From the IMG/VR virus record IMGVR_UViG_3300025009_000019: a DNA stretch of 53,374 nucleotides; one strand, 5' to 3'. The position numbers were made by a program, and so were the translations under genes. Below, one piece after another: positions 22,545 to 42,010 of this stretch. How positions within the stretch are numbered: the first letter of the stretch is position 1; each line of letters begins with the position of its first letter. The notes under the pieces are model-generated. The model did not search any database, was not told the DNA's origin, and saw only the letters and a program-made list of their open reading frames with translations. The stretch comes from a virus.

Positions 22545-22590
22545 GTTATAAGCAAGGCAAAGACACTCCGAATAAACGTCCGTGCCAAAC
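22545..22590 (-). ncRNA. Structured element, family A copy 1: 31-nt hairpin (22556-22586) followed by the box GCTTATAAC
   Basis: Minus sense: GGCACGGACGUUUAUUCGGAGUGUCUUUGCC-UUGCUUAUAAC. It is near-identical to 40900-40930 and related to 33880-33925. The stem needs G-U pairs in the minus sense. Confidence 0.5.
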
Positions 22591-23320: not shown

Positions 23321-23460
23321 CCCTGCTTATAACTTCGGCTAACCCGGCAAGTCAGGCAACCGTGGTTTCCGATCGGTGCAGCCCGTGTTAACTTTCGCTC
23401 TGATAGGAAAGTGAATCGCTTCGCACCCTGCCCTGCGTGTAGCCTTTAATGTTAGGCTTC
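23321..23460 (-). ncRNA. GC-enriched structured intergenic element (E2)
   Basis: Minus sense starts GAAGCCUAAC and ends GUUAUAAGC. Contains local hairpins AGCCU-N8-AGGCU and CGG-GUUAG-CCG. Shares GGCAGGG...CCUAUCAG with element 38662-38797. Confidence 0.45.
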
Positions 23461-29983: not shown

Positions 29984-30278
29984 TTGTTTGTTTTAAATCT
30001 AAAATTCTCAATCCTAGAGTGTAAGATTTATAGTTGATTTCATCTTCATTTTTTGAGTTATCGTCTTGCCATCGCAATATCTGATTTTTCGGCTGGCGAG
30101 TATTAATATCTAACACAATATCAGGCATATTAAAATAGTATGTTTCATTAAACGAGGCACAGCTCCCGACATCGTCTCCAATCCAAAAATCAAAGTCTAA
30201 ATCATGTTTATAAGCGAATCTCGCAACATACTCATTACATAGGTTTTCGTACTGTTTTTTAAGTTCATTTAGCTTCAT
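29970..30278 (-). CDS. Hypothetical protein
   Basis: 102-aa ORF. Confidence 0.45.
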   Translation of the reverse strand: MKLNELKKQYENLCNEYVARFAYKHDLDFDFWIGDDVGSCASFNETYYFNMPDIVLDINTRQPKNQILRWQDDNSKNEDEINYKSYTLGLRILDLKQTNGNE

Positions 30279-33879: not shown

Positions 33880-34071
33880 CTTGTTAGGCACAAGCGGGTA
33901 CGATAAACGACCGTAGATAATTTTGCTGCAAAAAGACAAGAAAATGGAAACAGCCGACCCACAAAACAGCACATTTGCAAACCGCTCCAGCCGACACAAA
34001 ACCAAAGTTTGCAAAAGAGCTGTTTTCTTGCCGACGCACCCAAGCCCACCCACCACCCTATTGGATGACAA
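33880..34071 (-). ncRNA. Non-coding structured region E3: family-A-like hairpin plus box (33880-33925) and a G/U-rich (minus sense) element colinear with 38093-38237
   Basis: CTTGTTAGGCAC (33880-91) is the reverse complement of 38238-49. The 8-mers AGCACATT, CAAAACCA and AAAGAGCT occur in the same order as in E4. Confidence 0.45.
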
Positions 34072-34121
34072 GTTGAAAGACTGTTAATAAATTTTTGATA
34101 ATAGATACTTTTTATTTATAG

Positions 34122-34164: not shown

Positions 34165-34479
34165 ATGATACAAAAAGAATCTTTTGGAGAGTTAATTAGA
34201 AAACTTAGGGAAGGTGAGGGACTTCCTCTTAGGAAAGTTGCAGCCCAGCTTGACATTGACCCATCGACACTTGGGAAAATAGAAAGAAATGAACGAACTG
34301 CGAATAAAGAAATGATTGAAAAATTGGGTGAAATTTTTTCAATAGACTCAGAACAACTACTAATCTCATTTTTGAGTGACAAAGTTGCTTTTGAATTAAT
34401 GAAAGAAGACTGTGCTAATGATGTCCTAAAGGTTGCAGAAGAGAAGGTTAAGTATTTTAAGAAGACAACTAAAATCTAA
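34165..34479 (+). CDS. XRE-family HTH controller (C) protein of the R-M island
   Basis: LRKVAAQLDIDPSTLGKIERNER is a classic HTH. It is the first gene of the only plus-strand operon. Confidence 0.6.
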   Translation: MIQKESFGELIRKLREGEGLPLRKVAAQLDIDPSTLGKIERNERTANKEMIEKLGEIFSIDSEQLLISFLSDKVAFELMKEDCANDVLKVAEEKVKYFKKTTKI

Positions 34480-34494
34480 TAGGTTCGAGTAAAA

Positions 34495-36831
34495 ATGACA
34501 GTAAAAGAAAAATCATATATTCTACAAGAAGAAGCTCCACAATTAATGGTTTCCGACCAACAATTGGAATTGTTTCGTGATTTGGAATTAGCAAAATACA
34601 ACGATAGTGATTTATATAACGGCAAATCTAAAAATAAATTAAATGTAGTTTCTCTATTTACTGGTGCTGGTGGGTTAGACATAGGTTTTAAAGAAGCAGG
34701 GTTTAACTGTGTATTTGCATCTGATATTATGCCTCAAGCAGAGACTACTTACAATTATAATTTTCCATCAACACCTTTCGTAAGAAAAGACGTCAGGTTG
34801 CTTTCTAAGGAAGAAATAGAGAATTTGATTGGTAAAAACAAAATTGATGTGCTAATTGGTGGACCTCCTTGTCAAGGTTTCTCAAATATGGGGAATAAAA
34901 ATTCATCAGACCCTAGAAATTATCTGTTTGAAAATTATGTGAAGATTGTGGAGACAATACAACCCAAATGTTTTCTTTTTGAAAATGTGAAAGGATTATT
35001 TACAATGTTTGAAGGTCGTTTTTTTGATAAAGTCGTAAATGCATTTTTAGAAATTGGTTATAATGTTTCTTACTCTATGATTGATTCGTCTAAATATGGC
35101 GTACCTCAAAAAAGGGAGAGGATAATAATTTTCGGTACTAAGATTAATAGGTCATTTAGATTCCCTAAACCAAATTCAAAATCATTTGGTAGAATAAGTG
35201 CCTTTTCAAATGTTGGTGAAGCTATAAACGATTTAATGCAACTAGAAAATAGATACCCAAATCATGTTCCATTAAATCACAATGAAATAGTTGTTCAAAG
35301 ATATAAACTTATCCCAGAAGGTGGAAAATTGCCAAAACCTGAGGAACTTCCTGAAGAAATTAGAAGGAAAAATTTTGGAAATACATACACAAGATTAAAC
35401 AGAAAGGAAGTCTCATCAACAATAGTTCCTGGCAATAATGCTTTACCTGTTCATCCAGTTTTAAATAGGAGTTTGACAGCTCGTGAAGCTGCAAGAATTC
35501 AAACGTTTCCTGATTATTTTATTTTTAGAGGGGATAGACGTTCCCAATGTATTCTTGTTGGTAATGCTGTGCCTCCATTACTTGCAGCCAAGTTGGCAGA
35601 ATGCGTTGCAAATTTTATTAATGAAATTGAATATGATGGAATAAGTCCTGATGGTCAAGCAAAAGTTGGCACTAAATTTTCTCGTCATAAAGTTAACACA
35701 GTAAAGAAAAATGGGCGTGCAAATTTAAAATTCGCTGATTTATTTAGTGGTGTTGGTGGTTTTACGCAAGGCTTAGAAGCTGCTGGACTTGAATGTGTTT
35801 TAGGTGCAGATTTTGATGAATATGCTGTTGAAGCATATCGTAGAAACCATTCTTCCCATGAATGTTTGAAAATAGACCTAGCTGACCCTAAAAATCAAAA
35901 GATAGTAGCTGATAGGTTGAAAAAAGAAAAAGTTGATTTAATAGTTGGAGGGCCTCCTTGTCAAGGATTTTCTATTTTTGGGAAAAGACGATTTGTAAAC
36001 ACAAAGAATCATGATTTAAAAAAAGACAAAAGAAACGATTTGGTGTTTGCATTTGCAAATATTGTAATAAGGTCAAATGCAAACTGGTTTATTATGGAAA
36101 ATGTTCCAGGTATTCTTTCAGCACATAGTGGTTCTTATGTTGAGGAAGTAAGAAATTATTTTTTAAAACATAAATATAAAACGGAAATAAAAATCATAAA
36201 TGCAGCAGATTATGGTGTTCCTCAGTTGAGAAAGCGCTTTATTTTGTTTGGTACTAAGACAGACCTCATGATTCCATTTCCAAAACCAAAATATTTTGAA
36301 ACACCTGAATCATGGCAACTGCCATACAGAACAGTTGGTGAAGTTTTAACTGACTTATCTAACGAAAAAACATTAGGCAAATATCAAAATCATTTTGCAC
36401 CAAACCATTCTCCAATAATTGTGGAAAGATTTTCATACATAAAAGAAGGACAAAAATTGGAAATTGAATCTTTACCAGAACACTTGAAGAATGGTACTAA
36501 GACTGGCAAACCAATGGCAAACTACAGTCATGTTTTTAAACGTTTACATAGGAAAAAACCTGCTGGCACTATTGTTCCTGGTCATAATGCATTCCCTGTT
36601 CATCCAACATTAAATAGAACTTTAACTGTGAGGGAAGCTGCAAGAATTCAAACGTTTCCAGATAATTATGAATTTGTTGGTCCAATAATAAATCAATGTT
36701 TACAAGTAGGTAATGCTTTCCCTTGTTTAGTCGCTCAAATTTTTGGGGAAAGGCTTAGAACAGTAATAAATAAAGAATGGAGTGAAGAAAGTGCGACTCA
36801 TTTAGCTAAATACTCAATGTTAGAAAAATAA
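34495..36831 (+). CDS. Fused double C5-cytosine DNA methyltransferase (two complete Dcm-like domains)
   Basis: Domain 1: FTGAGGLDIGF, GGPPCQGFS, FENVKGL, QKRERIIIFG, GNAVPP. Domain 2: FSGVGGFTQGL, GGPPCQGFS, MENVPGI, QLRKRFILFG, GNAFPC. Confidence 0.85.
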   Translation: MTVKEKSYILQEEAPQLMVSDQQLELFRDLELAKYNDSDLYNGKSKNKLNVVSLFTGAGGLDIGFKEAGFNCVFASDIMPQAETTYNYNFPSTPFVRKDVRLLSKEEIENLIGKNKIDVLIGGPPCQGFSNMGNKNSSDPRNYLFENYVKIVETIQPKCFLFENVKGLFTMFEGRFFDKVVNAFLEIGYNVSYSMIDSSKYGVPQKRERIIIFGTKINRSFRFPKPNSKSFGRISAFSNVGEAINDLMQLENRYPNHVPLNHNEIVVQRYKLIPEGGKLPKPEELPEEIRRKNFGNTYTRLNRKEVSSTIVPGNNALPVHPVLNRSLTAREAARIQTFPDYFIFRGDRRSQCILVGNAVPPLLAAKLAECVANFINEIEYDGISPDGQAKVGTKFSRHKVNTVKKNGRANLKFADLFSGVGGFTQGLEAAGLECVLGADFDEYAVEAYRRNHSSHECLKIDLADPKNQKIVADRLKKEKVDLIVGGPPCQGFSIFGKRRFVNTKNHDLKKDKRNDLVFAFANIVIRSNANWFIMENVPGILSAHSGSYVEEVRNYFLKHKYKTEIKIINAADYGVPQLRKRFILFGTKTDLMIPFPKPKYFETPESWQLPYRTVGEVLTDLSNEKTLGKYQNHFAPNHSPIIVERFSYIKEGQKLEIESLPEHLKNGTKTGKPMANYSHVFKRLHRKKPAGTIVPGHNAFPVHPTLNRTLTVREAARIQTFPDNYEFVGPIINQCLQVGNAFPCLVAQIFGERLRTVINKEWSEESATHLAKYSMLEK

Positions 36832-36835
36832 TATT

Positions 36836-38092
36836 ATGTCAGTAAATCATCATCTTCTTGCAAAAGCAACAACTGATTCAGTTTTAGCAAATTTTAAATC
36901 AGGTGCATGGAAATGTTGCACAGATGTAGGTTTAGATTTTTATAGAGTTGGTTGTGATAGCAGTTTCCCTTCTCCTGATGCAGCCTTCTACGATGATGCA
37001 AAAAAGTTAATGGTAACATTTGAGTTCAAGCCACCCACAGAAACTAAAAGAGGTATTTTGACGGGGTTGGGTCAATCTATTGCATATTTAAATAGTAGCA
37101 ACTTGTCATACCTTATTGTGCCACAAACATTAGAGGATTATGATATTGGTGGCTACATGACAAATTTATATCAAAACCAAATTGAAGAAAGTCTACCAGT
37201 CGGTTTAATTGTTTATGAGAACAATGCACCAACAAAAGTTTCGCTTATTCATAATGTAAATACTCTAACTAAAACAAAGGAATTTAAAGCTATAGCAAGT
37301 GGTAGGTTTTGGGCAAAACACTTAGATATGCCAATACCTTTATTTCATTTAATTCTCCATTGCTATTATTTAAAAAAAATAGGCCAAATTACTGGCGATG
37401 CATTTGCTTATTGTTGGGAAACATATTTAGTTCCAAATAGTGTTTTAAAAACATTAACTCCAACTGCAATTAAGGATATGAATGGAGATTTCATTGAAAC
37501 TTTGTCTGGAAGAAAGAATATTATCTTTTTTGAGAAGAAAATAGCAGCACTTAAAAAGTTATCTGGAGCAACTAAAGGAAAGGCTATAGCAGACTTACGA
37601 CAAGATGCTGATACATCATTTATTGGAGATAATTATTACAATTCTATTAAGAAAAATTTTGTTACATTTTTAAAACATATTGGAGTAGTTGATTCAATTG
37701 GTCATTTAACAGAGGAGGGTTTTAAACTTTATCATTTAGGCTTAGTTAATGGTCCAAACAGTAAAATATTCCAAGACTACTTTACACAAACGGTTTTAAT
37801 TACTGGTCACCATTTAGATTTGATTTTTGATTTGGACAACTTATGTAATCAATTCAGGGGCAAATATGAGATTATGAAAATCAGAGAAATAATGCTGGAA
37901 GATTATGAGGCGAGAGGAATGATTAAAAGAAATCCAAATAGAAAAGCTGGTGATGAAAGTAAGGTTGAGTTTCTAAAATATGAATTTATTTTATGGAATT
38001 CATTAAATTTAACAGTAAAGACAAATGGTACACCTGATGTTTCTTTTAATTGGAAAAAAATAACAGAAGTTTGTTCTATGCCTGATTTATAA
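36836..38092 (+). CDS. Restriction endonuclease candidate (N-terminal PD-ExK motif)
   Basis: SPDAAFYDDAKKLMVTFEFKPP gives D...ExK. It starts 4 nt downstream of the methyltransferase stop. Confidence 0.5.
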   Translation: MSVNHHLLAKATTDSVLANFKSGAWKCCTDVGLDFYRVGCDSSFPSPDAAFYDDAKKLMVTFEFKPPTETKRGILTGLGQSIAYLNSSNLSYLIVPQTLEDYDIGGYMTNLYQNQIEESLPVGLIVYENNAPTKVSLIHNVNTLTKTKEFKAIASGRFWAKHLDMPIPLFHLILHCYYLKKIGQITGDAFAYCWETYLVPNSVLKTLTPTAIKDMNGDFIETLSGRKNIIFFEKKIAALKKLSGATKGKAIADLRQDADTSFIGDNYYNSIKKNFVTFLKHIGVVDSIGHLTEEGFKLYHLGLVNGPNSKIFQDYFTQTVLITGHHLDLIFDLDNLCNQFRGKYEIMKIREIMLEDYEARGMIKRNPNRKAGDESKVEFLKYEFILWNSLNLTVKTNGTPDVSFNWKKITEVCSMPDL

Positions 38093-38237
38093 GCCCACGC
38101 TTCGTAGTCAAGCACATTGGCTGGTCGCACAAAAATCCAACACGCGACCAAAACCAGCCAAAGAGCTTGCCTACCCAAACGCACGTGGAAACATTGCAGC
38201 AAATTGACAGATAAAATGATAAAAATAAAAATCGCCA
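38093..38237 (-). ncRNA. Non-coding structured region E4, colinear with part of E3
   Basis: Hairpin GGTCGC-N15-GCGACC nested in CTGG/CCAG. Shares ordered 8-mers with 33968-34021. An AT-rich tract at 38195-38235 follows the E5 stem in the minus sense, giving a terminator-like U-run. Confidence 0.4.
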
Positions 38238-38375
38238 GTGCCTAACAAGCGGTCATAAAACATTGGGGGTTAAGTGGTTAATCGAGCGTTCTACCTCGCA
38301 TCAAGGTTCGGTATCGGGGGATACATTCGCAGCTCCGAAAACCCCAACGTTTCATACCGCCGTCCGTTATAGGCA
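38238..38375 (-). ncRNA. Structured RNA candidate E5, homolog of E7
   Basis: 19-bp closing stem 38249-68 / 38342-60 has two G-U pairs and one bulge in the minus sense (A-C mismatches in the plus sense). Outer boxes are TGCCTATAAC (minus sense, 38375-66) and GTTAGGCA. Inner hairpin GUAUC-CCCC-GAUAC. A roughly 60-nt core is conserved with 40046-40179. Confidence 0.55.
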
Positions 38376-38645
38376 ATACGGTTTGGTGCATTTAATAAAC
38401 TTTGGTTTTTTGTTCAAATAAATGAATTCGTTCCACCAACCAGTACAAGGTAATATCCAATATTGAAAACTATACCATTGGTAGGTTTTTGTTTTCCCCC
38501 CAGTTCCTCTTGATGCTATATTACCATCTGCCATTAAATCGAAACTATGTAATGTATAGTTTTCAATTCGCTTCTCAGTACATTTTGTAAGTCGAACAAA
38601 AAACCACTGAAAGAAAAATACGTTTACTGCTTTTAATTTAGTCAT
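38367..38645 (-). CDS. Hypothetical 92-aa protein, exactly bracketed by the 10-bp inverted repeat GTTATAGGCA/TGCCTATAAC
   Basis: The stop codon lies inside the box at 38366-75. The partner box at 38662-71 lies 16 nt upstream of the ATG. Confidence 0.45.
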   Translation of the reverse strand: MTKLKAVNVFFFQWFFVRLTKCTEKRIENYTLHSFDLMADGNIASRGTGGKTKTYQWYSFQYWILPCTGWWNEFIYLNKKPKFIKCTKPYCL

Positions 38646-38661
38646 ATCGTTAAAATTGCAC

Positions 38662-38797
38662 TGCCTATAACAACAAATATAAAACAGCAGGGCAGTATTA
38701 CTGAATTATAATGTGTGCTACTATTCATCATTTGTGGTCGGCTGATAGGGTTTTGCACTTAATCCCTGCCGTTTCATATTTGCAGCCGTTACCTGCA
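38662..38797 (-). ncRNA. Structured RNA candidate E6
   Basis: 18-bp stem 38675-92 / 38764-81 is perfect in the minus sense with two G-U pairs. The 5' box is TGCAGGTAAC (minus sense) and the 3' box GTTATAGGCA. Confidence 0.55.
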
Positions 38798-38819
38798 AGT
38801 GTAAGAAACTGCACAGCCA

Positions 38820-40004
38820 TTAATGAGCCTTGAAATTATAGAGTGGTTTAATCACTCCGATAATATCAACGGTTTCAGTAATTGCAGATTTAATTTCATC
38901 AATTGATTTATAAGCCTGTGGAGCTTCATCCAAAGTTTCAGTAACAACCGAAGTTGTATAAACATCTTTCATTGTTTCAACAAAATCAGCCATATTAATA
39001 GCTTCTTTTGCTTTGCTTCGGCTCATTAATCTACCTGCTCCATGAGGTGCTGAATAGTTCCAGTTTTCATTTCCTTTGCCAATACACAATAAAGAACCAT
39101 CACGCATATTAATTGGAATAAGCAATGTTTCCCCATTTTCAGCAGAAACCGCACCTTTTCTCAAAATCATGCGTTTAAAATCAATGTAGTTGTGTATTGT
39201 TTCAAATCGTTCAGCTTCTTGCAAACCAGCTTCTTTTAAAATAATTTCAGCCATTGTTTCACGGTTCAAAGTCGCAAATTTTTGAACAATAGCCATATCA
39301 TTCATATAGTCGGCAAAGTTATTACCAGTTAAAAAGGCTAAATCCTTATCGGTTACAGGCTTTTTAATCTTCTTAATTTCGGCTGCAATTTCTTTTTCTC
39401 TACCTTCTGCTTTTAGTTTGTCAATTGCATTTTTAACAACTTTGCTCATTTCATTGGCATTTTGAAAGGCTTTATCTTGGTAATACTTACAAGTATCACC
39501 GCCTAATTTTCGGCTTCCTGAATGTATAATCAAATACAGTTCGCCAGTTATTTCATGTTTGCCGACTTCAATAAAATGGTTTCCACCACCAAGCGAACCA
39601 ATTGAAAGCACTGCACGGCTTAAATTAACGTGTTTTTCACAGCGTAAATTTGTAAAGTCGAAATCTTTCTTTGATTTTTCGTGAACACTAAAACCACAAG
39701 GCACTTTAGTTTTAATTACTTCGTCCAGTTTTTCAAAGTCAATTTCTTTGTTTTTGAGCTTAATTGTAAGCATTCCGCAACCAATATCAACACCTACCAA
39801 ATTTGGAGTTACTTTGTCGGTTATAGTTATTGTTGTACCAACTGTACAACCTTTACCAGCGTGTGCATCAGGCATAATTCGCACATTTGCATTTTCATAC
39901 GCTTCAAAGTTTACCAGTTTTTTAATTTGGTCATACGCTTCAAATTCAAATGTTTCAGCGAATATTAGCGTTTCAATTCCTTTGTTATTTTTAATCGTTT
40001 TCAT
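38820..40004 (-). CDS. rtcB: RNA 3'-phosphate/2',3'-cyclic-phosphate to 5'-OH ligase RtcB
   Basis: Motifs DAHAGKGCTVGTT, GGGNHFIE, HSGSRKLG and PHGAGR in a 394-aa protein. Confidence 0.85.
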   Translation of the reverse strand: MKTIKNNKGIETLIFAETFEFEAYDQIKKLVNFEAYENANVRIMPDAHAGKGCTVGTTITITDKVTPNLVGVDIGCGMLTIKLKNKEIDFEKLDEVIKTKVPCGFSVHEKSKKDFDFTNLRCEKHVNLSRAVLSIGSLGGGNHFIEVGKHEITGELYLIIHSGSRKLGGDTCKYYQDKAFQNANEMSKVVKNAIDKLKAEGREKEIAAEIKKIKKPVTDKDLAFLTGNNFADYMNDMAIVQKFATLNRETMAEIILKEAGLQEAERFETIHNYIDFKRMILRKGAVSAENGETLLIPINMRDGSLLCIGKGNENWNYSAPHGAGRLMSRSKAKEAINMADFVETMKDVYTTSVVTETLDEAPQAYKSIDEIKSAITETVDIIGVIKPLYNFKAH

Positions 40005-40045
40005 ATCGTAAAATTAAGAATATTAATAAATTAGTACAAACACCA

Positions 40046-40179
40046 GCAGGTAACACAAGCTATAACCAATAAAGGTTTTAGTGGTTAATCAAACGTTGTA
40101 GCTCGCATCCAGTTCGGTATCGGTTGATAGTGCATCGCTCCGTAATCCTTTACTGGTAATAGCCACAAACGTTACCTGC
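40046..40179 (-). ncRNA. Structured RNA candidate E7, homolog of E5, immediately upstream of rtcB
   Basis: Self-closing 9-bp boxes GCAGGTAAC / GTTACCTGC (40046-54 / 40171-79). 17-bp stem 40059-75 / 40147-63 with one G-U and one U-U in the minus sense. Conserved core CGGAGC..UAUC-NNCC-GAUACCGAAC..GAUGCGAG..GAUUAACCACU. Confidence 0.55.
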
Positions 40180-40182
40180 AAT

Positions 40183-40476
40183 TTATTTTACCCCACGCTC
40201 CTTCTGCATTTGTTCCAGTCGTTCTTGAAATCGGCTTTTCTTGCCTACCTCTGTAAAGTTTTTAATTTCGCTCTTGTTTTTAACTGCGAACACAGCACTT
40301 GCAATAAACATCAATAGTGCTACTCCTGCACATATTAAAATCATCCAAACGCTCCACCAATTAAAAACTTTGTCCTTCACCAAGTAGAGTATAAATTCTA
40401 CTATCGCCCAAATTGATGATGCTACTGCTCCTAAGTAGGCAAGAAAAGCCGTTACTCCTGTTAATATTGTTTTCAT
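40183..40476 (-). CDS. 97-aa membrane protein (three hydrophobic segments)
   Basis: Hydrophobic segments GVTAFLAYLGAVASSIWAIVEFILYLV and WMILICAGVALLMFIASAVFAV. Confidence 0.5.
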   Translation of the reverse strand: MKTILTGVTAFLAYLGAVASSIWAIVEFILYLVKDKVFNWWSVWMILICAGVALLMFIASAVFAVKNKSEIKNFTEVGKKSRFQERLEQMQKERGVK

Positions 40477-40517
40477 TTTTAAATTTGTTTAATGCCTCCC
40501 TTAGTAAAATAAACTGA

Positions 40518-40620
40518 CAGGTAACAAGGGCTTGGCAAAATGCCACCAATCAGCTTTGTGCCTTGAATTTTATCGGTTGCTTGGTGGCACTATCGCCAAG
40601 CCCCGTCCGTTATAGCCAAT
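40518..40620 (-). ncRNA. Structured RNA candidate E8
   Basis: Nested perfect stems GGGCTTGGC/GCCAAGCCC (40528-36 / 40595-603) and TGCCACCAA/TTGGTGGCA (40541-49 / 40581-89). Shares the 13-mer CCGTCCGTTATAG (40603-15) with E5 (38360-72). Confidence 0.55.
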
Positions 40621-40868
40621 TAAAAAATCCACATCGCATTATCAATTGCAGCTCGATGACAAATTGAACAGGCTACACTTCCGCTTTTAACTGATTTATA
40701 ATTATCATCATACCATATACCAGCTTCTTTTATATCTTCAAAAAAATACTGTTTATCAAAAGCTTCGTAAACCATAGCATTTTCATTACATACATGGTCA
40801 GTTGGTTCGCCTCCGCACATTATTGCAGTAGATTCGCCTAAGTCTATTATTTTACATCCTTGTCTCAT
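40620..40868 (-). CDS. 82-aa Cys-rich protein
   Basis: Motifs MCGGEPTDHVCN...ACSICH. Confidence 0.45.
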   Translation of the reverse strand: MRQGCKIIDLGESTAIMCGGEPTDHVCNENAMVYEAFDKQYFFEDIKEAGIWYDDNYKSVKSGSVACSICHRAAIDNAMWIF

Positions 40869-40873
40869 TTATT

Positions 40874-40943
40874 GGTTATAGCTTCATCGTTAGTAGCAAG
40901 GCAAAGACGCTCCGATTGAACGTCCGTGCCAAGCATTTAGATT
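40874..40943 (-). ncRNA. Structured element, family A copy 3 (hairpin 40900-40930) plus TAAC-type boxes
   Basis: Minus sense GGCACGGACGUUCAAUCGGAGCGUCUUUGCC-UUGCUACUAAC. Differs from copy 1 by a C/U change that keeps a pair (G-C versus G-U). Confidence 0.5.
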
Positions 40944-41066
40944 TTAGTCTGTGATAATTGACAATTGTCCACAGGCTGCGCCATTTTCAATCTCACTTTG
41001 AGTTGCTACGGCAACGGCAAAATCATAGCCGTTTTCTTCTAATTGACTTTTAATTTGTTCAGTCAT
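40944..41066 (-). CDS. Possible 40-aa ORF (MTEQIKSQLEENGYDFAVAV...)
   Basis: Hand translation. Starts 11 nt after the radical-SAM stop. Confidence 0.25.
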   Translation of the reverse strand: MTEQIKSQLEENGYDFAVAVATQSEIENGAACGQLSIITD

Positions 41067-41077
41067 TGCTTTATGTA

Positions 41078-41860
41078 TTAAATTAAATTAATTCCCTCTA
41101 CTACTCCACTTCCAAGCCCATTCTTTTCAGAAGTAGTATTCGGGTTTATTGGGCTTATTTTTATGAAAAATTTATCTTTATCAAAATGTTGTTTAATCTT
41201 TTTAATATCAAAGTCTTTTTCTTCTACCAGCGTTAAGTTTATGGTAGTTTTCAAATTGCTTTCGGTTCTTACATTTCCAAGTTGCTCAATGGTCATTTTG
41301 TTTTTGAATGGTATTAGCCAATTCCTATGCTCTTCATCCAAGCTATGCAAAGAAAGTTGCAGCGTCAGATTGTCTTTTATCCAAGTAAAATCAGCATCTT
41401 TCAAACCAATAGTTGAAATATAGTGGTGTGTATTTGGGTAGTGTTGGCTTATTTTTTCAATTGCCTTTTTTACGTTTTCAATATTTAAAAACGGTTCTCC
41501 CATTCGGGTATAGTTTATTTTAAACTCTTTACTATCCAATGGGTTTATGTTGTTTTTAGCAATTATAAACTCAACTTGGGTTGTAATTTCTTGCCAAGTC
41601 AAATTACGCCAACTTTTCATTTGTCCAGTTGCACAAAATTTGCATCTTACAGGGCATCCACTCATTACGCTTACTCCAACCATCCAGCGTTCCGAACGGT
41701 CGCTTAATTCGTAATTGTCTAGCATATTTTGCTTTCTACCTATTGCATCTTTTGTATAGTAAGGTAAAAAAGTATCGGTAGTTTCAATTAACATTCCGTC
41801 CTCTAATTCGAGGCAATAAACGCTACCGTTTTTAAAGTTCTTTTGTTTTTTAATTTTCAT
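41078..41860 (-). CDS. RlmN/Cfr-like radical-SAM enzyme, short form lacking both methyl-transfer cysteines
   Basis: The cluster SGCPVRCKFCATGQ and the motifs MGEPFLN, ISTIG, LQLSLHS and IKISPINP parallel RlmN GCALECKFC, MGMGEPLLN, LSTSG, LAISLHA and INLIPWNP. The C118-equivalent is Gly/Val, and the protein ends before the C355 region. Confidence 0.6.
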   Translation of the reverse strand: MKIKKQKNFKNGSVYCLELEDGMLIETTDTFLPYYTKDAIGRKQNMLDNYELSDRSERWMVGVSVMSGCPVRCKFCATGQMKSWRNLTWQEITTQVEFIIAKNNINPLDSKEFKINYTRMGEPFLNIENVKKAIEKISQHYPNTHHYISTIGLKDADFTWIKDNLTLQLSLHSLDEEHRNWLIPFKNKMTIEQLGNVRTESNLKTTINLTLVEEKDFDIKKIKQHFDKDKFFIKISPINPNTTSEKNGLGSGVVEGINLI

Positions 41861-41907
41861 TGTATCAATATTTTAAGATTAATAATAAAAACAATGGCAC
41901 TTGGTTT

Positions 41908-41998
41908 CCTAACCGATGGCTTGTCAAACACTGTATCTTATTTTCATAAGCGAAACTTGTACAGGCAAAGCCACTGTTCTTATTCTAAACCGTTAGCC
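41908..41998 (-). ncRNA. Structured RNA candidate E10
   Basis: Minus sense: 5' box GGCUAAC-GGUU, stems GUGGCUU/AAGCCAU and CUGUA/UACAG, GNRA-capped hairpin CUUAU-GAAA-AUAAG, and 3' box GUUAGG. Confidence 0.45.
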
Positions 41999-42010
41999 TA
42001 ACCGCTACCG

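Follow-up and report, generated by a model that had tools for sequence, protein, structure and literature searches.

A hypervariable accessory region of a Flavobacteriia-type siphophage, probably a row of independent cassettes divided by attC-like repeats, and its putative two-component RlmN/Cfr-like radical-SAM pair

Gene content of the accessory region

The virus sequence IMGVR_UViG_3300025009_000019 from the IMG/VR database (53,374 nucleotides (nt), in the following referred to as the window) was analysed with a focus on the stretch at 38.1–42.0 kb, in which genes for an RtcB RNA ligase, a radical S-adenosylmethionine (SAM) protein related to RlmN and Cfr, a separate 40-amino-acid (aa) peptide and several small proteins alternate with structured intergenic elements, all genes being located on the minus strand (Table 1). 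With a G+C content of 30%, the window encodes portal protein, major head protein, tape measure protein and primase-helicase of a tailed phage, and the nearest cultured relative, judged by the primase-helicase, was Cellulophaga phage phi10:1 (43% identity). The stretch is probably a hypervariable accessory-gene region of a Flavobacteriia-type siphophage, and as the other part of the same best explanation we consider it likely to be a row of independent cassettes, i.e. [radical-SAM core + 40-aa tail], [82-aa], [97-aa], [RtcB] and [92-aa], divided by attC-like repeats. Independent inheritance of the genes was observed directly, as was the membership of the repeats in one covarying family that also occurs in arrays of Bacteroidota.

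An initial annotation had read positions 38,820 to 41,860 as a phage RNA repair and modification island with dedicated non-coding RNAs. Its inventory was confirmed by the searches described below: a canonical RtcB, an RlmN/Cfr-like radical-SAM protein (by sequence and by fold), a Cys-rich open reading frame (ORF) of 82 aa and a membrane-type ORF of 97 aa are present, the intergenic stretches fold far better than shuffled sequences (z-scores of −3.2 to −5.7), and family, ARAGORN and Rfam searches returned neither tRNA genes nor archease, Pnkp/Hen1, Rsr or Y-RNA partners. Overlooked had been the 40-aa tail ORF, the 92-aa ORF and the single-family nature of the structured elements.

Table 1 Features of the accessory region, listed from the ORF that is first in transcription order (z, fold z-score against shuffled sequences; R1 and R2, covariance models)
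Feature	Position	Strand	Remarks
96-aa ORF	42301–42011	−	First in transcription order, before E1
E1, degenerate hairpin-repeat copy	41875–42001	−	R2 15.9 bits; weak fold, z = −1.7
Radical-SAM core, 260 aa	41078–41860	−	RlmN/Cfr-like by profile and fold
Detached Cys tail of the radical-SAM enzyme, 40 aa	40944–41066	−	AACGQL motif
Short GC-rich hairpin GGCACGGACGTTCAATCGGAGCGTCTTTGCC, closing the radical-SAM cassette	40895–40930	−	z = −4.0
Orphan 5′ half of an A-type repeat, TACTAACGATGAAGCTATAACCAATAAA	40868–40897	−	Inverted repeat I10; compared to the L002 element (5′ arm)
Cys-rich protein, 82 aa	40620–40868	−	Family of 38 clusters
Element C, short-interior member of the repeat family	40517–40618	−	Termini TATAACGGACGGGGCTTGGCG...GCCAAGCCCTTGTTAC
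Hydrophobic membrane-type protein, 97 aa	40183–40476	−	Weak holin-like matches
Element A, A-type repeat, 135 nt	40046–40180	−	R1 154 bits, R2 133 bits; z = −3.2
RtcB RNA ligase, 394 aa, short phage type	38820–40004	−	PF01139, phrog_1075
Element E, repeat copy	38663–38797	−	R2 107 bits; z = −3.5
Conserved hypothetical protein, 92 aa	38367–38645	−	45 homologous clusters
Element B, GGCGGTATGAAACGTTGGGG subtype repeat	38238–38375	−	R1 119 bits, R2 97 bits; z = −3.9
Hairpin with 22-bp arms, between the convergent 418-aa ORF and element B	38104–38174		Inverted repeat I4

One covarying repeat family at the gene boundaries

Covariance models R1 and R2 were built from elements A and B, which share the interior GATGCGAG-N11-GATTAACCAC and whose stems show compensatory differences. 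With these models, 16 copies were identified, all on the gene strand, in the window and in three phage contigs related to it (loci used for comparison carry L numbers). In the alignment of these copies, 17 of 25 base pairs showed double-sided changes, 89.8% of the cells were paired (70% after shuffling), and the covariation score was 0.495 as compared to 0.155 for shuffled alignments, a value reached by none of 500 shuffles and not approached when the pairing partners were slid (at most 0.17). After inclusion of bacterial copies (50-copy alignment), 29 of 38 pairs covaried, 85.7% of the cells were paired (shuffled: 70.3%), and covariation was 0.396 versus 0.140, again reached in 0/500 shuffles, with slid partners giving at most 0.10. 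The common plan comprises a variable helix of about 5 bp that closes the element, conserved TAACG and GTGTTA (5′ and 3′ side, respectively), an asymmetric internal loop, a covarying stem of 18 bp and a variable or subtype-specific interior. Both helices flanking the internal loop covary, nearly all copies keep TAAC and GTTA, and one G·U pair is kept in 49 of 50.

The elements, which are among the strongest structures of the window, are placed with respect to the upstream gene: in 18 of 24 copies, the start falls anywhere from 9 nt within the upstream ORF to 3 nt past its stop codon, which in five of them is the TAA of TAACG. Element A follows the stop codon of the 97-aa ORF at a distance of 2 nt, and 41 nt separate its end from the ATG of rtcB; copies of 88–94% identity were found in unrelated contexts in L083, L084 and metagenome contigs. 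Element E starts 22 nt past the RtcB stop codon and has a 90% identical copy in L084 (5559–5693), and element B is up to 97.7% identical to copies from metagenomes and Bacteroidota. Strong copies in the window are limited to A, E and B (38238–40180); C, E1 and a copy at 23325–23460 are weak or short. Within 38.2–42.0 kb, three strong and three weak or short copies were counted. Element C, beginning about 10 nt downstream of the 82-aa stop codon, folds more strongly than any other structure in the window (−48.3 kcal/mol, z = −5.7), scores weakly with R2 (10.7 bits) and aligns with the family at its termini. The copy at 23325–23460 (R2 31 bits) follows a 58-aa ORF far from the accessory region. 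The second strongest structure of the window (33941–34080, minus strand, GC 0.49, −49.5 kcal/mol) lies outside the TAACG repeat family, at a divergent junction.

Ten copies were located within 16.8 kb in L002, with further copies in L083 and L084. Among the other loci carrying the radical-SAM gene, none showed more than one weak match (L003, 29 bits), and the repeats were absent from the six RtcB-query loci L087–L092 as well as from phage phi10:1. Rfam gave no match for the elements, neither at gathering thresholds nor at E ≤ 5, Y-RNA-like families included. Scans for sigma-70 promoters and intrinsic terminators revealed no enrichment of either, and no promoter consensus or canonical terminator tail at the repeats.

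Borders of DNA shared with other loci also lie at repeats. Homology of the radical-SAM cassette with L002 and L003 begins at ATTATTAATC, directly past E1, of which the 5′ half is intact (GGCTAACGGTTTAGAATAAGAACAGTGG) and the 3′ terminus is replaced at the junction. At the other end, the GC-rich hairpin is kept after the tail ORF in both loci, and similarity stops after ...CTACTAAC, the next base being G, at the TAAC of the orphan half-element. A second copy of this end hairpin (22551–22588, 92% identical) lies far from the region. The orphan half, which overlaps the start of the 82-aa ORF, is over 17 nt (40868–40884) a perfect complement of the 3′ arm of element A (40057–40073), which suggests that a block of 82-aa gene, element C, 97-aa gene and new 5′ half was inserted into a pre-existing A-type element or recombined within it.

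The same repeats in Bacteroidota

The core motif of the A type was found in 14 genome contigs and 34 metagenome contigs. A full element was present in 10 of the 14 genome contigs, all 10 from Bacteroidota; in the other four, the motif matched inside unrelated sequence. Carriers comprise Flavobacterium limi, Psychroflexus, Algoriphagus, a metagenome-assembled genome (MAG) of Saprospiraceae and several MAGs of Bacteroidales and unclassified Bacteroidetes. Here, the repeats form arrays of 4–6 copies per 8–11 kb, with six copies in 8 kb in F. limi (NZ_JAADZV010000009, L096), five in L121 and four each in L111 and L114; L125 is a further chromosomal or metagenomic array of this ORF-plus-repeat type. 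Every array copy adjoins an ORF stop codon, its strand being opposite to that of the ORFs (15 copies opposite, 16 same). Among the genes carried are those for a TIR-domain protein and an AAA/OLD-like ATPase, together with large ORFs of the size of restriction-modification (RM) genes. The repeats thus tie the phage accessory region to chromosomal cassette arrays of Bacteroidota, some of them with defence genes.

At the edge of the F. limi array a 310-aa tyrosine recombinase is encoded, which scored 208 bits with a "Xer/integron integrase" model and shares 37% identity with a recombinase of L083, a phage contig that bears the elements.

A composite of the hairpin at 38104–38174 and element B (similarity over 38090–38376) follows RM-like genes in the metagenome contigs L121, L114 and L133. 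In the window, it is preceded by a plus-strand block (34165–38092) that is inverted relative to the rest of the genome and converges on the accessory region; the structure at 33941–34080 stands at the divergent junction before it. The block encodes a 104-aa XRE-type helix-turn-helix (HTH) protein, a 778-aa fused double C5-cytosine DNA methyltransferase and a 418-aa protein without family match, a layout resembling a controller-methylase-endonuclease RM cassette. Since the composite follows RM-like genes in L121 and L114, the HTH-methyltransferase-418-aa block of the window has a bacterial-type arrangement.

Repeats as putative recombination sites

By sequence and predicted fold, the structured elements are attC-like cassette-boundary repeats. 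Their termini (...YTAAC/GTTR...), terminal helix, internal loop, long imperfect stem and length of 60–140 nt are reminiscent of attC sites, as is their arrangement, with the stop of the upstream ORF often inside TAAC, with ORF-plus-site arrays in one orientation and with sites that are alike within an array. The types compared were the attC-site clusters without integron integrase (CALINs) of virulent phages (PMC9892861) and, from sedentary chromosomal integrons, the long attC sites exemplified by the Vibrio cholerae repeats (VCR type). Clusters of attC without integrase have been described in virulent phages, among them Polaribacter phage P12002L (PMC9892861), and the validated phage sites read TATAACG...CTTGTTATA (PMC9892861, supplement). 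On P12002L (L146), model R2 detected eight copies at E ≤ 0.03, six short (58–70 nt) and two long, most of which sit just after genes, several of these encoding DNA methyltransferases; the match at 30003–30062 coincides with the HattCI-predicted site P12002L_attC1 (PMC9892861). The repeats would act mainly as DNA recombination or exchange points, by which cassettes would be moved between phages and bacteria, and each cassette has at its end, or a few nucleotides away, a copy of the ~135-nt repeat or a short or degenerate variant. Termination or stabilisation of transcripts by the repeats may come as a by-product. Repeats and Xer-like recombinase together could form an integron-like cassette system that has gone unrecognised, is common in Bacteroidota, contains defence genes and is shared with phages. 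If the repeats are recombination sites, they would provide a direct route of gene exchange between phages and bacterial defence arrays.

Several observations weigh against this reading. Integrons are reported to be rare in Bacteroidetes (PMC9024848). P12002L_attC1, the only member of the repeat family ever tested for recombination, was the sole site in that study without verified recombination by IntI1 (PMC9892861). Unlike in integrons, no canonical IntI is encoded near the repeats: searches of the window by tblastn with the L083 and L096 recombinases found no recombinase, and these two are Xer/IntI-like proteins below the cutoff of the integron-integrase model TIGR02249, the L096 protein scoring 197 bits with the IntI-specific insertion unmatched. 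Unlike attC sites, the repeats have no conserved extrahelical bases or bulge, conserved G·U pairs making the strands unequal instead; the A-type interior is conserved across classes of Bacteroidota, whereas attC sites have a variable region there; and the better-pairing, G·U-bearing strand in the phages is the mRNA strand. Finally, in L002 the left boundary of the radical-SAM cassette lies ~12 nt beyond the GTT, and in the window it truncates E1, so that the exchange was not a clean G|TT crossover.

Since the mRNA strand pairs better, a role at the RNA level (terminator, RNase III site, 3′ stabiliser) stays a live alternative or addition. In its strict form, which we regard as possible but clearly the less probable account, the repeats would be chiefly 3′-untranslated hairpins for termination, RNase III-type processing or protection of 3′ ends, and exchange would be a side-effect of their similarity. 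The pairing advantage of the coding strand, 4–11 kcal/mol over the complement in all four phage contigs, the conservation of G·U pairs, the start of the elements at stop codons with 13–60 nt of AT-rich sequence before the next ATG, and the imprecise cassette boundaries are all in line with such a role. It is harder to reconcile with the bacterial arrays, where the G·U-bearing fold is antisense to the flanking ORFs and hence outside their mRNA, with the missing terminator tails, with the related tyrosine recombinases that accompany the repeats in L096 and L083, and with termini that match attC core sites. We favour attC-like cassette boundaries.

A putative two-component radical-SAM enzyme

The radical-SAM core matched the generic Radical_SAM domain, with RlmN (TIGR00048) as the best NCBIfam model (77.3 bits, cutoff 290) over profile positions 101–249 of 355 only; the Cfr models gave about 50–55 bits (cutoffs 468–550). 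A model of the core predicted with AlphaFold2 (predicted local distance difference test 72.6, predicted TM-score 0.75) was submitted to Foldseek, and the only significant matches were RlmN 6fz6 (E = 2e-8, query TM-score 0.64) and Cfr 9p0p (E = 1e-7, query TM-score 0.57). The cluster motif CX3CX2C (C69/C73/C76) is invariant in the alignment. The core ends exactly where the C-terminal segment of RlmN starts, and 11 nt past its stop codon, in another frame and with its own ATG, the 40-aa tail ORF encodes MTEQIKSQLEENGYDFAVAVATQSEIENGAACGQLSIITD. When core and tail were joined, the product aligned with residues 117–356 of RlmN 6fz6, through AACGQL, the methyl-carrier motif of the Cys355 type.

To our knowledge, RlmN and Cfr are the sole characterised class A radical-SAM methylases, and their mechanism uses two cysteines in one polypeptide. 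In E. coli RlmN, Cys355 is methylated and then forms a Cys355-CH2-adenine cross-link, which is resolved by Cys118; C118A mutants stay cross-linked to RNA, and the resolving cysteine has been termed indispensable (PMC9692996). In the protein encoded in the window and in all members of the phage family, the column of Cys118, seven residues before the cluster motif, is occupied by Gly; the canonical RlmN sequences aligned with them show Cys at this position. No other conserved Cys is present in the core. Cys16, the only other Cys of the protein encoded in the window, was considered as a stand-in for Cys118 and discarded, as it is not conserved, being His in the protein of a Moorella phage and Leu in that of Pectobacterium phage Arno162. 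Furthermore, the N-terminal helical (helix-hairpin-helix-like) domain of RlmN is absent, its ~65 N-terminal residues having no counterpart in the phage proteins (alignment A9), an insertion of ~25 aa precedes the cluster motif, and the scores are far under the cutoffs of the RlmN and Cfr models. Three defining features of RlmN thus fail, and the fourth, the carrier cysteine, is present only in trans. The activity of RlmN on A2503 and A37, mentioned in the initial annotation, can, because of these three failures, not simply be transferred to the phage protein.

The pair appears, from its sequences, to be a widespread two-component variant of the RlmN/Cfr-like class A enzymes without resolving cysteine, and it is the novel item of the region. 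The free peptide would supply the methyl-carrier cysteine in trans to the core, and the pair would alkylate an adenine, or a similar sp2 carbon, in a nucleic acid. As the resolving cysteine is missing, product release must differ from that of RlmN and Cfr: the adduct would be resolved by a new route, or the peptide would stay covalently attached to the target adenine in rRNA, tRNA or DNA. Tentatively, the combination of the core with a free 39–44-aa AACGQL peptide may thus also stand for a chemistry or a target different from those of both enzymes. If so, the pair would be a phage tool to alter host translation or to mark nucleic acid, and it is widespread, with occurrences in crAss-like phages of the gut, in marine Flavobacteriia phages and in a Moorella phage. 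A carrier cysteine on a separate peptide combined with a missing resolving cysteine poses a testable question on mechanism and on nucleic-acid modification by phages.

DNA as the target, i.e. C-methylation or hypermodification of adenine in the phage genome against restriction, is an unlikely alternative to action on RNA. It would fit the absence of the N-terminal RNA-binding domain of RlmN, and in many phages the gene travels with accessory genes of DNA metabolism and of anti-restriction type. Moreover, in 13 gut-phage loci (L058 (8780–9968), L052, L053, L066–L069 and L074–L079) the tail follows 1171 nt after the core stop, and the two genes in between encode a second radical-SAM-like protein of 255 aa (apparent CX11CX2C) and a class I methyltransferase of 148 aa; these inserted genes hint at a multistep modification pathway, which would suit hypermodified DNA. 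The only characterised relatives of the phage family, RlmN and Cfr, however, act on RNA (PMC9692996), and no DNA-binding domain was detected in the Pfam search.

RtcB as a single-gene cassette

RtcB matched Pfam PF01139 with 203.8 bits (cutoff 27, E = 7e-60) and phrog_1075 over its full length (residues 6–393, E = 2e-132). Its motifs MPDAHAGKG, VDIGCG, GGGNHFIEV, HSGSRKLG and PHGAGR align with those of the Pyrococcus horikoshii and Thermus thermophilus enzymes and comprise the Asp, Cys and His metal ligands as well as the nucleophilic His (PHGAGR) of the structures solved from archaea and bacteria. The best bacterial models were PRK09588 (147.5 bits, cutoff 407) and the RF-H-coupled TIGR03073 (113.3 bits, cutoff 271.8), the protein remaining below the cutoff of both named equivalogs. 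Homologues were counted in 642 of 50,697 cultured phage genomes (~1.3%); phage RtcB is therefore already known. Judged by these matches, the protein is a bona fide homologue of RNA 3′-phosphate/5′-OH ligases and an ordinary phage RtcB, which would reseal 2′,3′-cyclic-phosphate/5′-OH breaks left in tRNA or rRNA by host ribotoxins. The counter-defence role proposed for it in the initial annotation is plausible by analogy with the known family.

In the six nearest relatives from IMG/VR (L087–L092, 70–89% aa identity), DNA similarity to the window is confined to 38819–40007, and no radical-SAM gene is present within the DNA available. Because similarity ends at the ORF ends and the radical-SAM gene is missing, RtcB behaves as a single-gene cassette. 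The ORFs beside it gave no Pfam, NCBIfam or PHROG match to Rsr/Y-RNA, Pnkp/Hen1 or archease partners, and ARAGORN found no tRNA genes in the window. Where the phage of the window has RtcB, L084 (8528–9094) and phi10:1 (L093, 23013–23513) encode a small "RNA ligase" of RLIG1 type, so that the lineage seems to keep some RNA ligase and to swap its family. Phage phi10:1 also carries genes for tRNA-Tyr and tRNA-Phe.

The A-type element precedes rtcB in the window and the RLIG1-like ligase gene in L084, and was considered as a ligase-associated RNA. This candidate was given up, as the elements adjoin the stop codon of the gene upstream, stand behind unrelated genes and form arrays without ligases.

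Small ORFs

The 82-aa Cys-rich protein had no Pfam, NCBIfam or PHROG match. None of its 38 homologous clusters is named, and homologues in other phages sit among small early genes without RtcB or the radical-SAM gene nearby; it is an independent small phage gene. Its candidacy as a conserved partner of the radical-SAM enzyme was not upheld by tblastn or gene context. A "CGG(G)E...C" motif is shared with a 150-aa ORF that follows the tail in L058. The 97-aa protein matched Phage_holin_3_6 at E = 8e-4, under the cutoff, and had no homologue in any of the loci compared; its ORF contains a perfect 17-nt inverted repeat (I8, 40232–40248/40435–40451) near both ends. The 92-aa ORF is a real conserved gene: its homologues (44–91% identity) occur in other phages and prophage-like regions without RtcB or the radical-SAM gene. 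The TAACG that opens element B provides, with its TAA, the stop codon of this ORF.

Independent inheritance of the genes

The nearest relative of the radical-SAM protein, encoded in L002 (97% aa identity), shares only 40888–41886 with the window (95% nt identity), and L002 has no gene for RtcB, the 82-aa or the 97-aa protein. Among the radical-SAM loci, almost every context has a different gene in first position behind the tail.

The initial annotation had proposed co-occurrence of RtcB and the radical-SAM gene as a check of its island. RtcB was indeed found within 8 kb of the radical-SAM gene in 6 of 81 loci, adjacent in L011 and L055 (~0.3–0.7 kb past the tail ORF) and 5 kb away in L014–L016 and L030; these are a minority, and the nearest relatives of each gene lack the other. 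A radical-SAM-like match and RtcB are also encoded 11 kb apart in Xanthomonas phage JGB6. The frequency near the radical-SAM gene is roughly 6-fold or more above that in cultured phages, which weighs against full independence and makes some functional synergy possible; it is compatible with accessory genes gathering in the same plastic region. RtcB and the radical-SAM pair may both help against RNA-targeting defences, without forming an obligatory module.

As a single module, RtcB would religate cleaved tRNA or rRNA, the radical-SAM enzyme would modify the target nucleotide, and the non-coding RNAs would serve as cofactors, decoys or substrates. Both enzymes come from RNA-acting families, they co-occur above the base rate, and an RNA ligase gene is closely preceded by an A-type element both in the window and in L084, yet we consider this account improbable: besides the separate inheritance of the two genes, the elements attach to the stop codon of the upstream ORF and not to the ligase gene, they are absent from the six RtcB loci and among radical-SAM loci are found only in L002 and as one weak match in L003, they stand beside unrelated genes in the Bacteroidota arrays, they have no Rfam match, Y-RNA-like families included, and the 82-aa and 97-aa genes are not conserved partners. 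An RNA repair and modification island as one module was thus replaced by independently exchanged genes, and its dedicated non-coding RNAs by generic, lineage-wide repeats that also stand beside unrelated genes in Bacteroidota chromosomes. The cassette reading corrects an attractive but unsupported interpretation.

Occurrence and variants of the split layout

A tail ORF accompanies the radical-SAM core in 80 of 81 viral loci, and for this reason the split layout is not an error. The 79 tails analysed in detail each have their own ATG, use all three relative frames and, apart from the 13 loci with inserted genes, start 9–59 nt after the core stop. The tail peptides comprise 39–44 aa with a highly conserved (A/G)ACGQL motif, and core and tail are both under strong conservation. 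The split is also seen in the crAss-like Kehishuvirus "tikkala" (L001) and in the Moorella phage MTATph1. In metagenomes, the family of the core exceeds 2000 proteins, nearly all of ~260 aa, 70–97% identical and ending at ...GINLI. Fusions occur in nature: P0124 and P0145 carry the Cys tail as an N-terminal fusion to the core (circular permutation), P0145 being fused to a second radical-SAM domain as well, and in more distant relatives of ~300–350 aa the tail is fused C-terminally. P0122 contains an intein inside the CX3CX2C motif. Literature searches found no paper on a split phage RlmN-like enzyme.

An ordinary rlmN that has become a pseudogene by frameshift, or that only looks split through a sequencing artefact, as the C-terminal motif in another frame 11 nt past a stop codon might suggest, can practically be dismissed in view of this layout with its own ATGs, three frames and variable gaps, the common ...GINLI end of the family, the natural N-terminal tail fusions and the conservation of both parts; a programmed frameshift was ruled out on the same varying frames and gaps, own ATGs and the two genes inserted in 13 loci.

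Among proteobacterial phages, Pectobacterium phage Arno162 (L085, 5001–5876) encodes a 291-aa family member, with seven tRNA genes 4 kb upstream. Members of this type showed no AACGQL tail ORF immediately downstream; elsewhere in the genome it was not searched for. A gene of the SPFH/prohibitin family lies near, or is annotated over, radical-SAM-like matches in "tikkala" (L001, 7058–8275) and at the matches H40, H42 and H49 from Stenotrophomonas and Xanthomonas phages.

Comparison with known systems

With regard to the placing of repeated intergenic stem-loops, the region can be compared to T4-type phages with their mobile regulatory promoter early stem-loop (PeSL) cassettes and to T7 with its intergenic RNase III sites, where stem-loops stand between small accessory genes of a hyperplastic region, at boundaries of gene shuffling. 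By analogy, the placing at shuffling boundaries is similar; the elements described here are much longer, are shared with bacterial chromosomes, are accompanied by a tyrosine recombinase in two loci and show no detected promoter consensus.

The RtcB of the window resembles other phage-encoded enzymes (PHROG 1075; phages of Bacillus, Listeria, Clostridioides and Mycobacterium) in keeping all catalytic motifs. As compared to the PrfH-coupled RtcB2 type, it has no adjoining PrfH, RtcA, archease, Rsr or Y RNA and, unlike those RtcBs, it forms a single-gene cassette between attC-like repeats.

The radical-SAM core shares with RlmN and Cfr (PDB 3RFA, 5HR7, 6FZ6, 9P0P) the CX3CX2C motif, the MGEP motif and the partial-barrel fold. 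In RlmN and Cfr, the motif of the Cys355 type is part of the same chain, whereas the phage family carries its conserved (A/G)ACGQL on a separate polypeptide of 39–44 aa.

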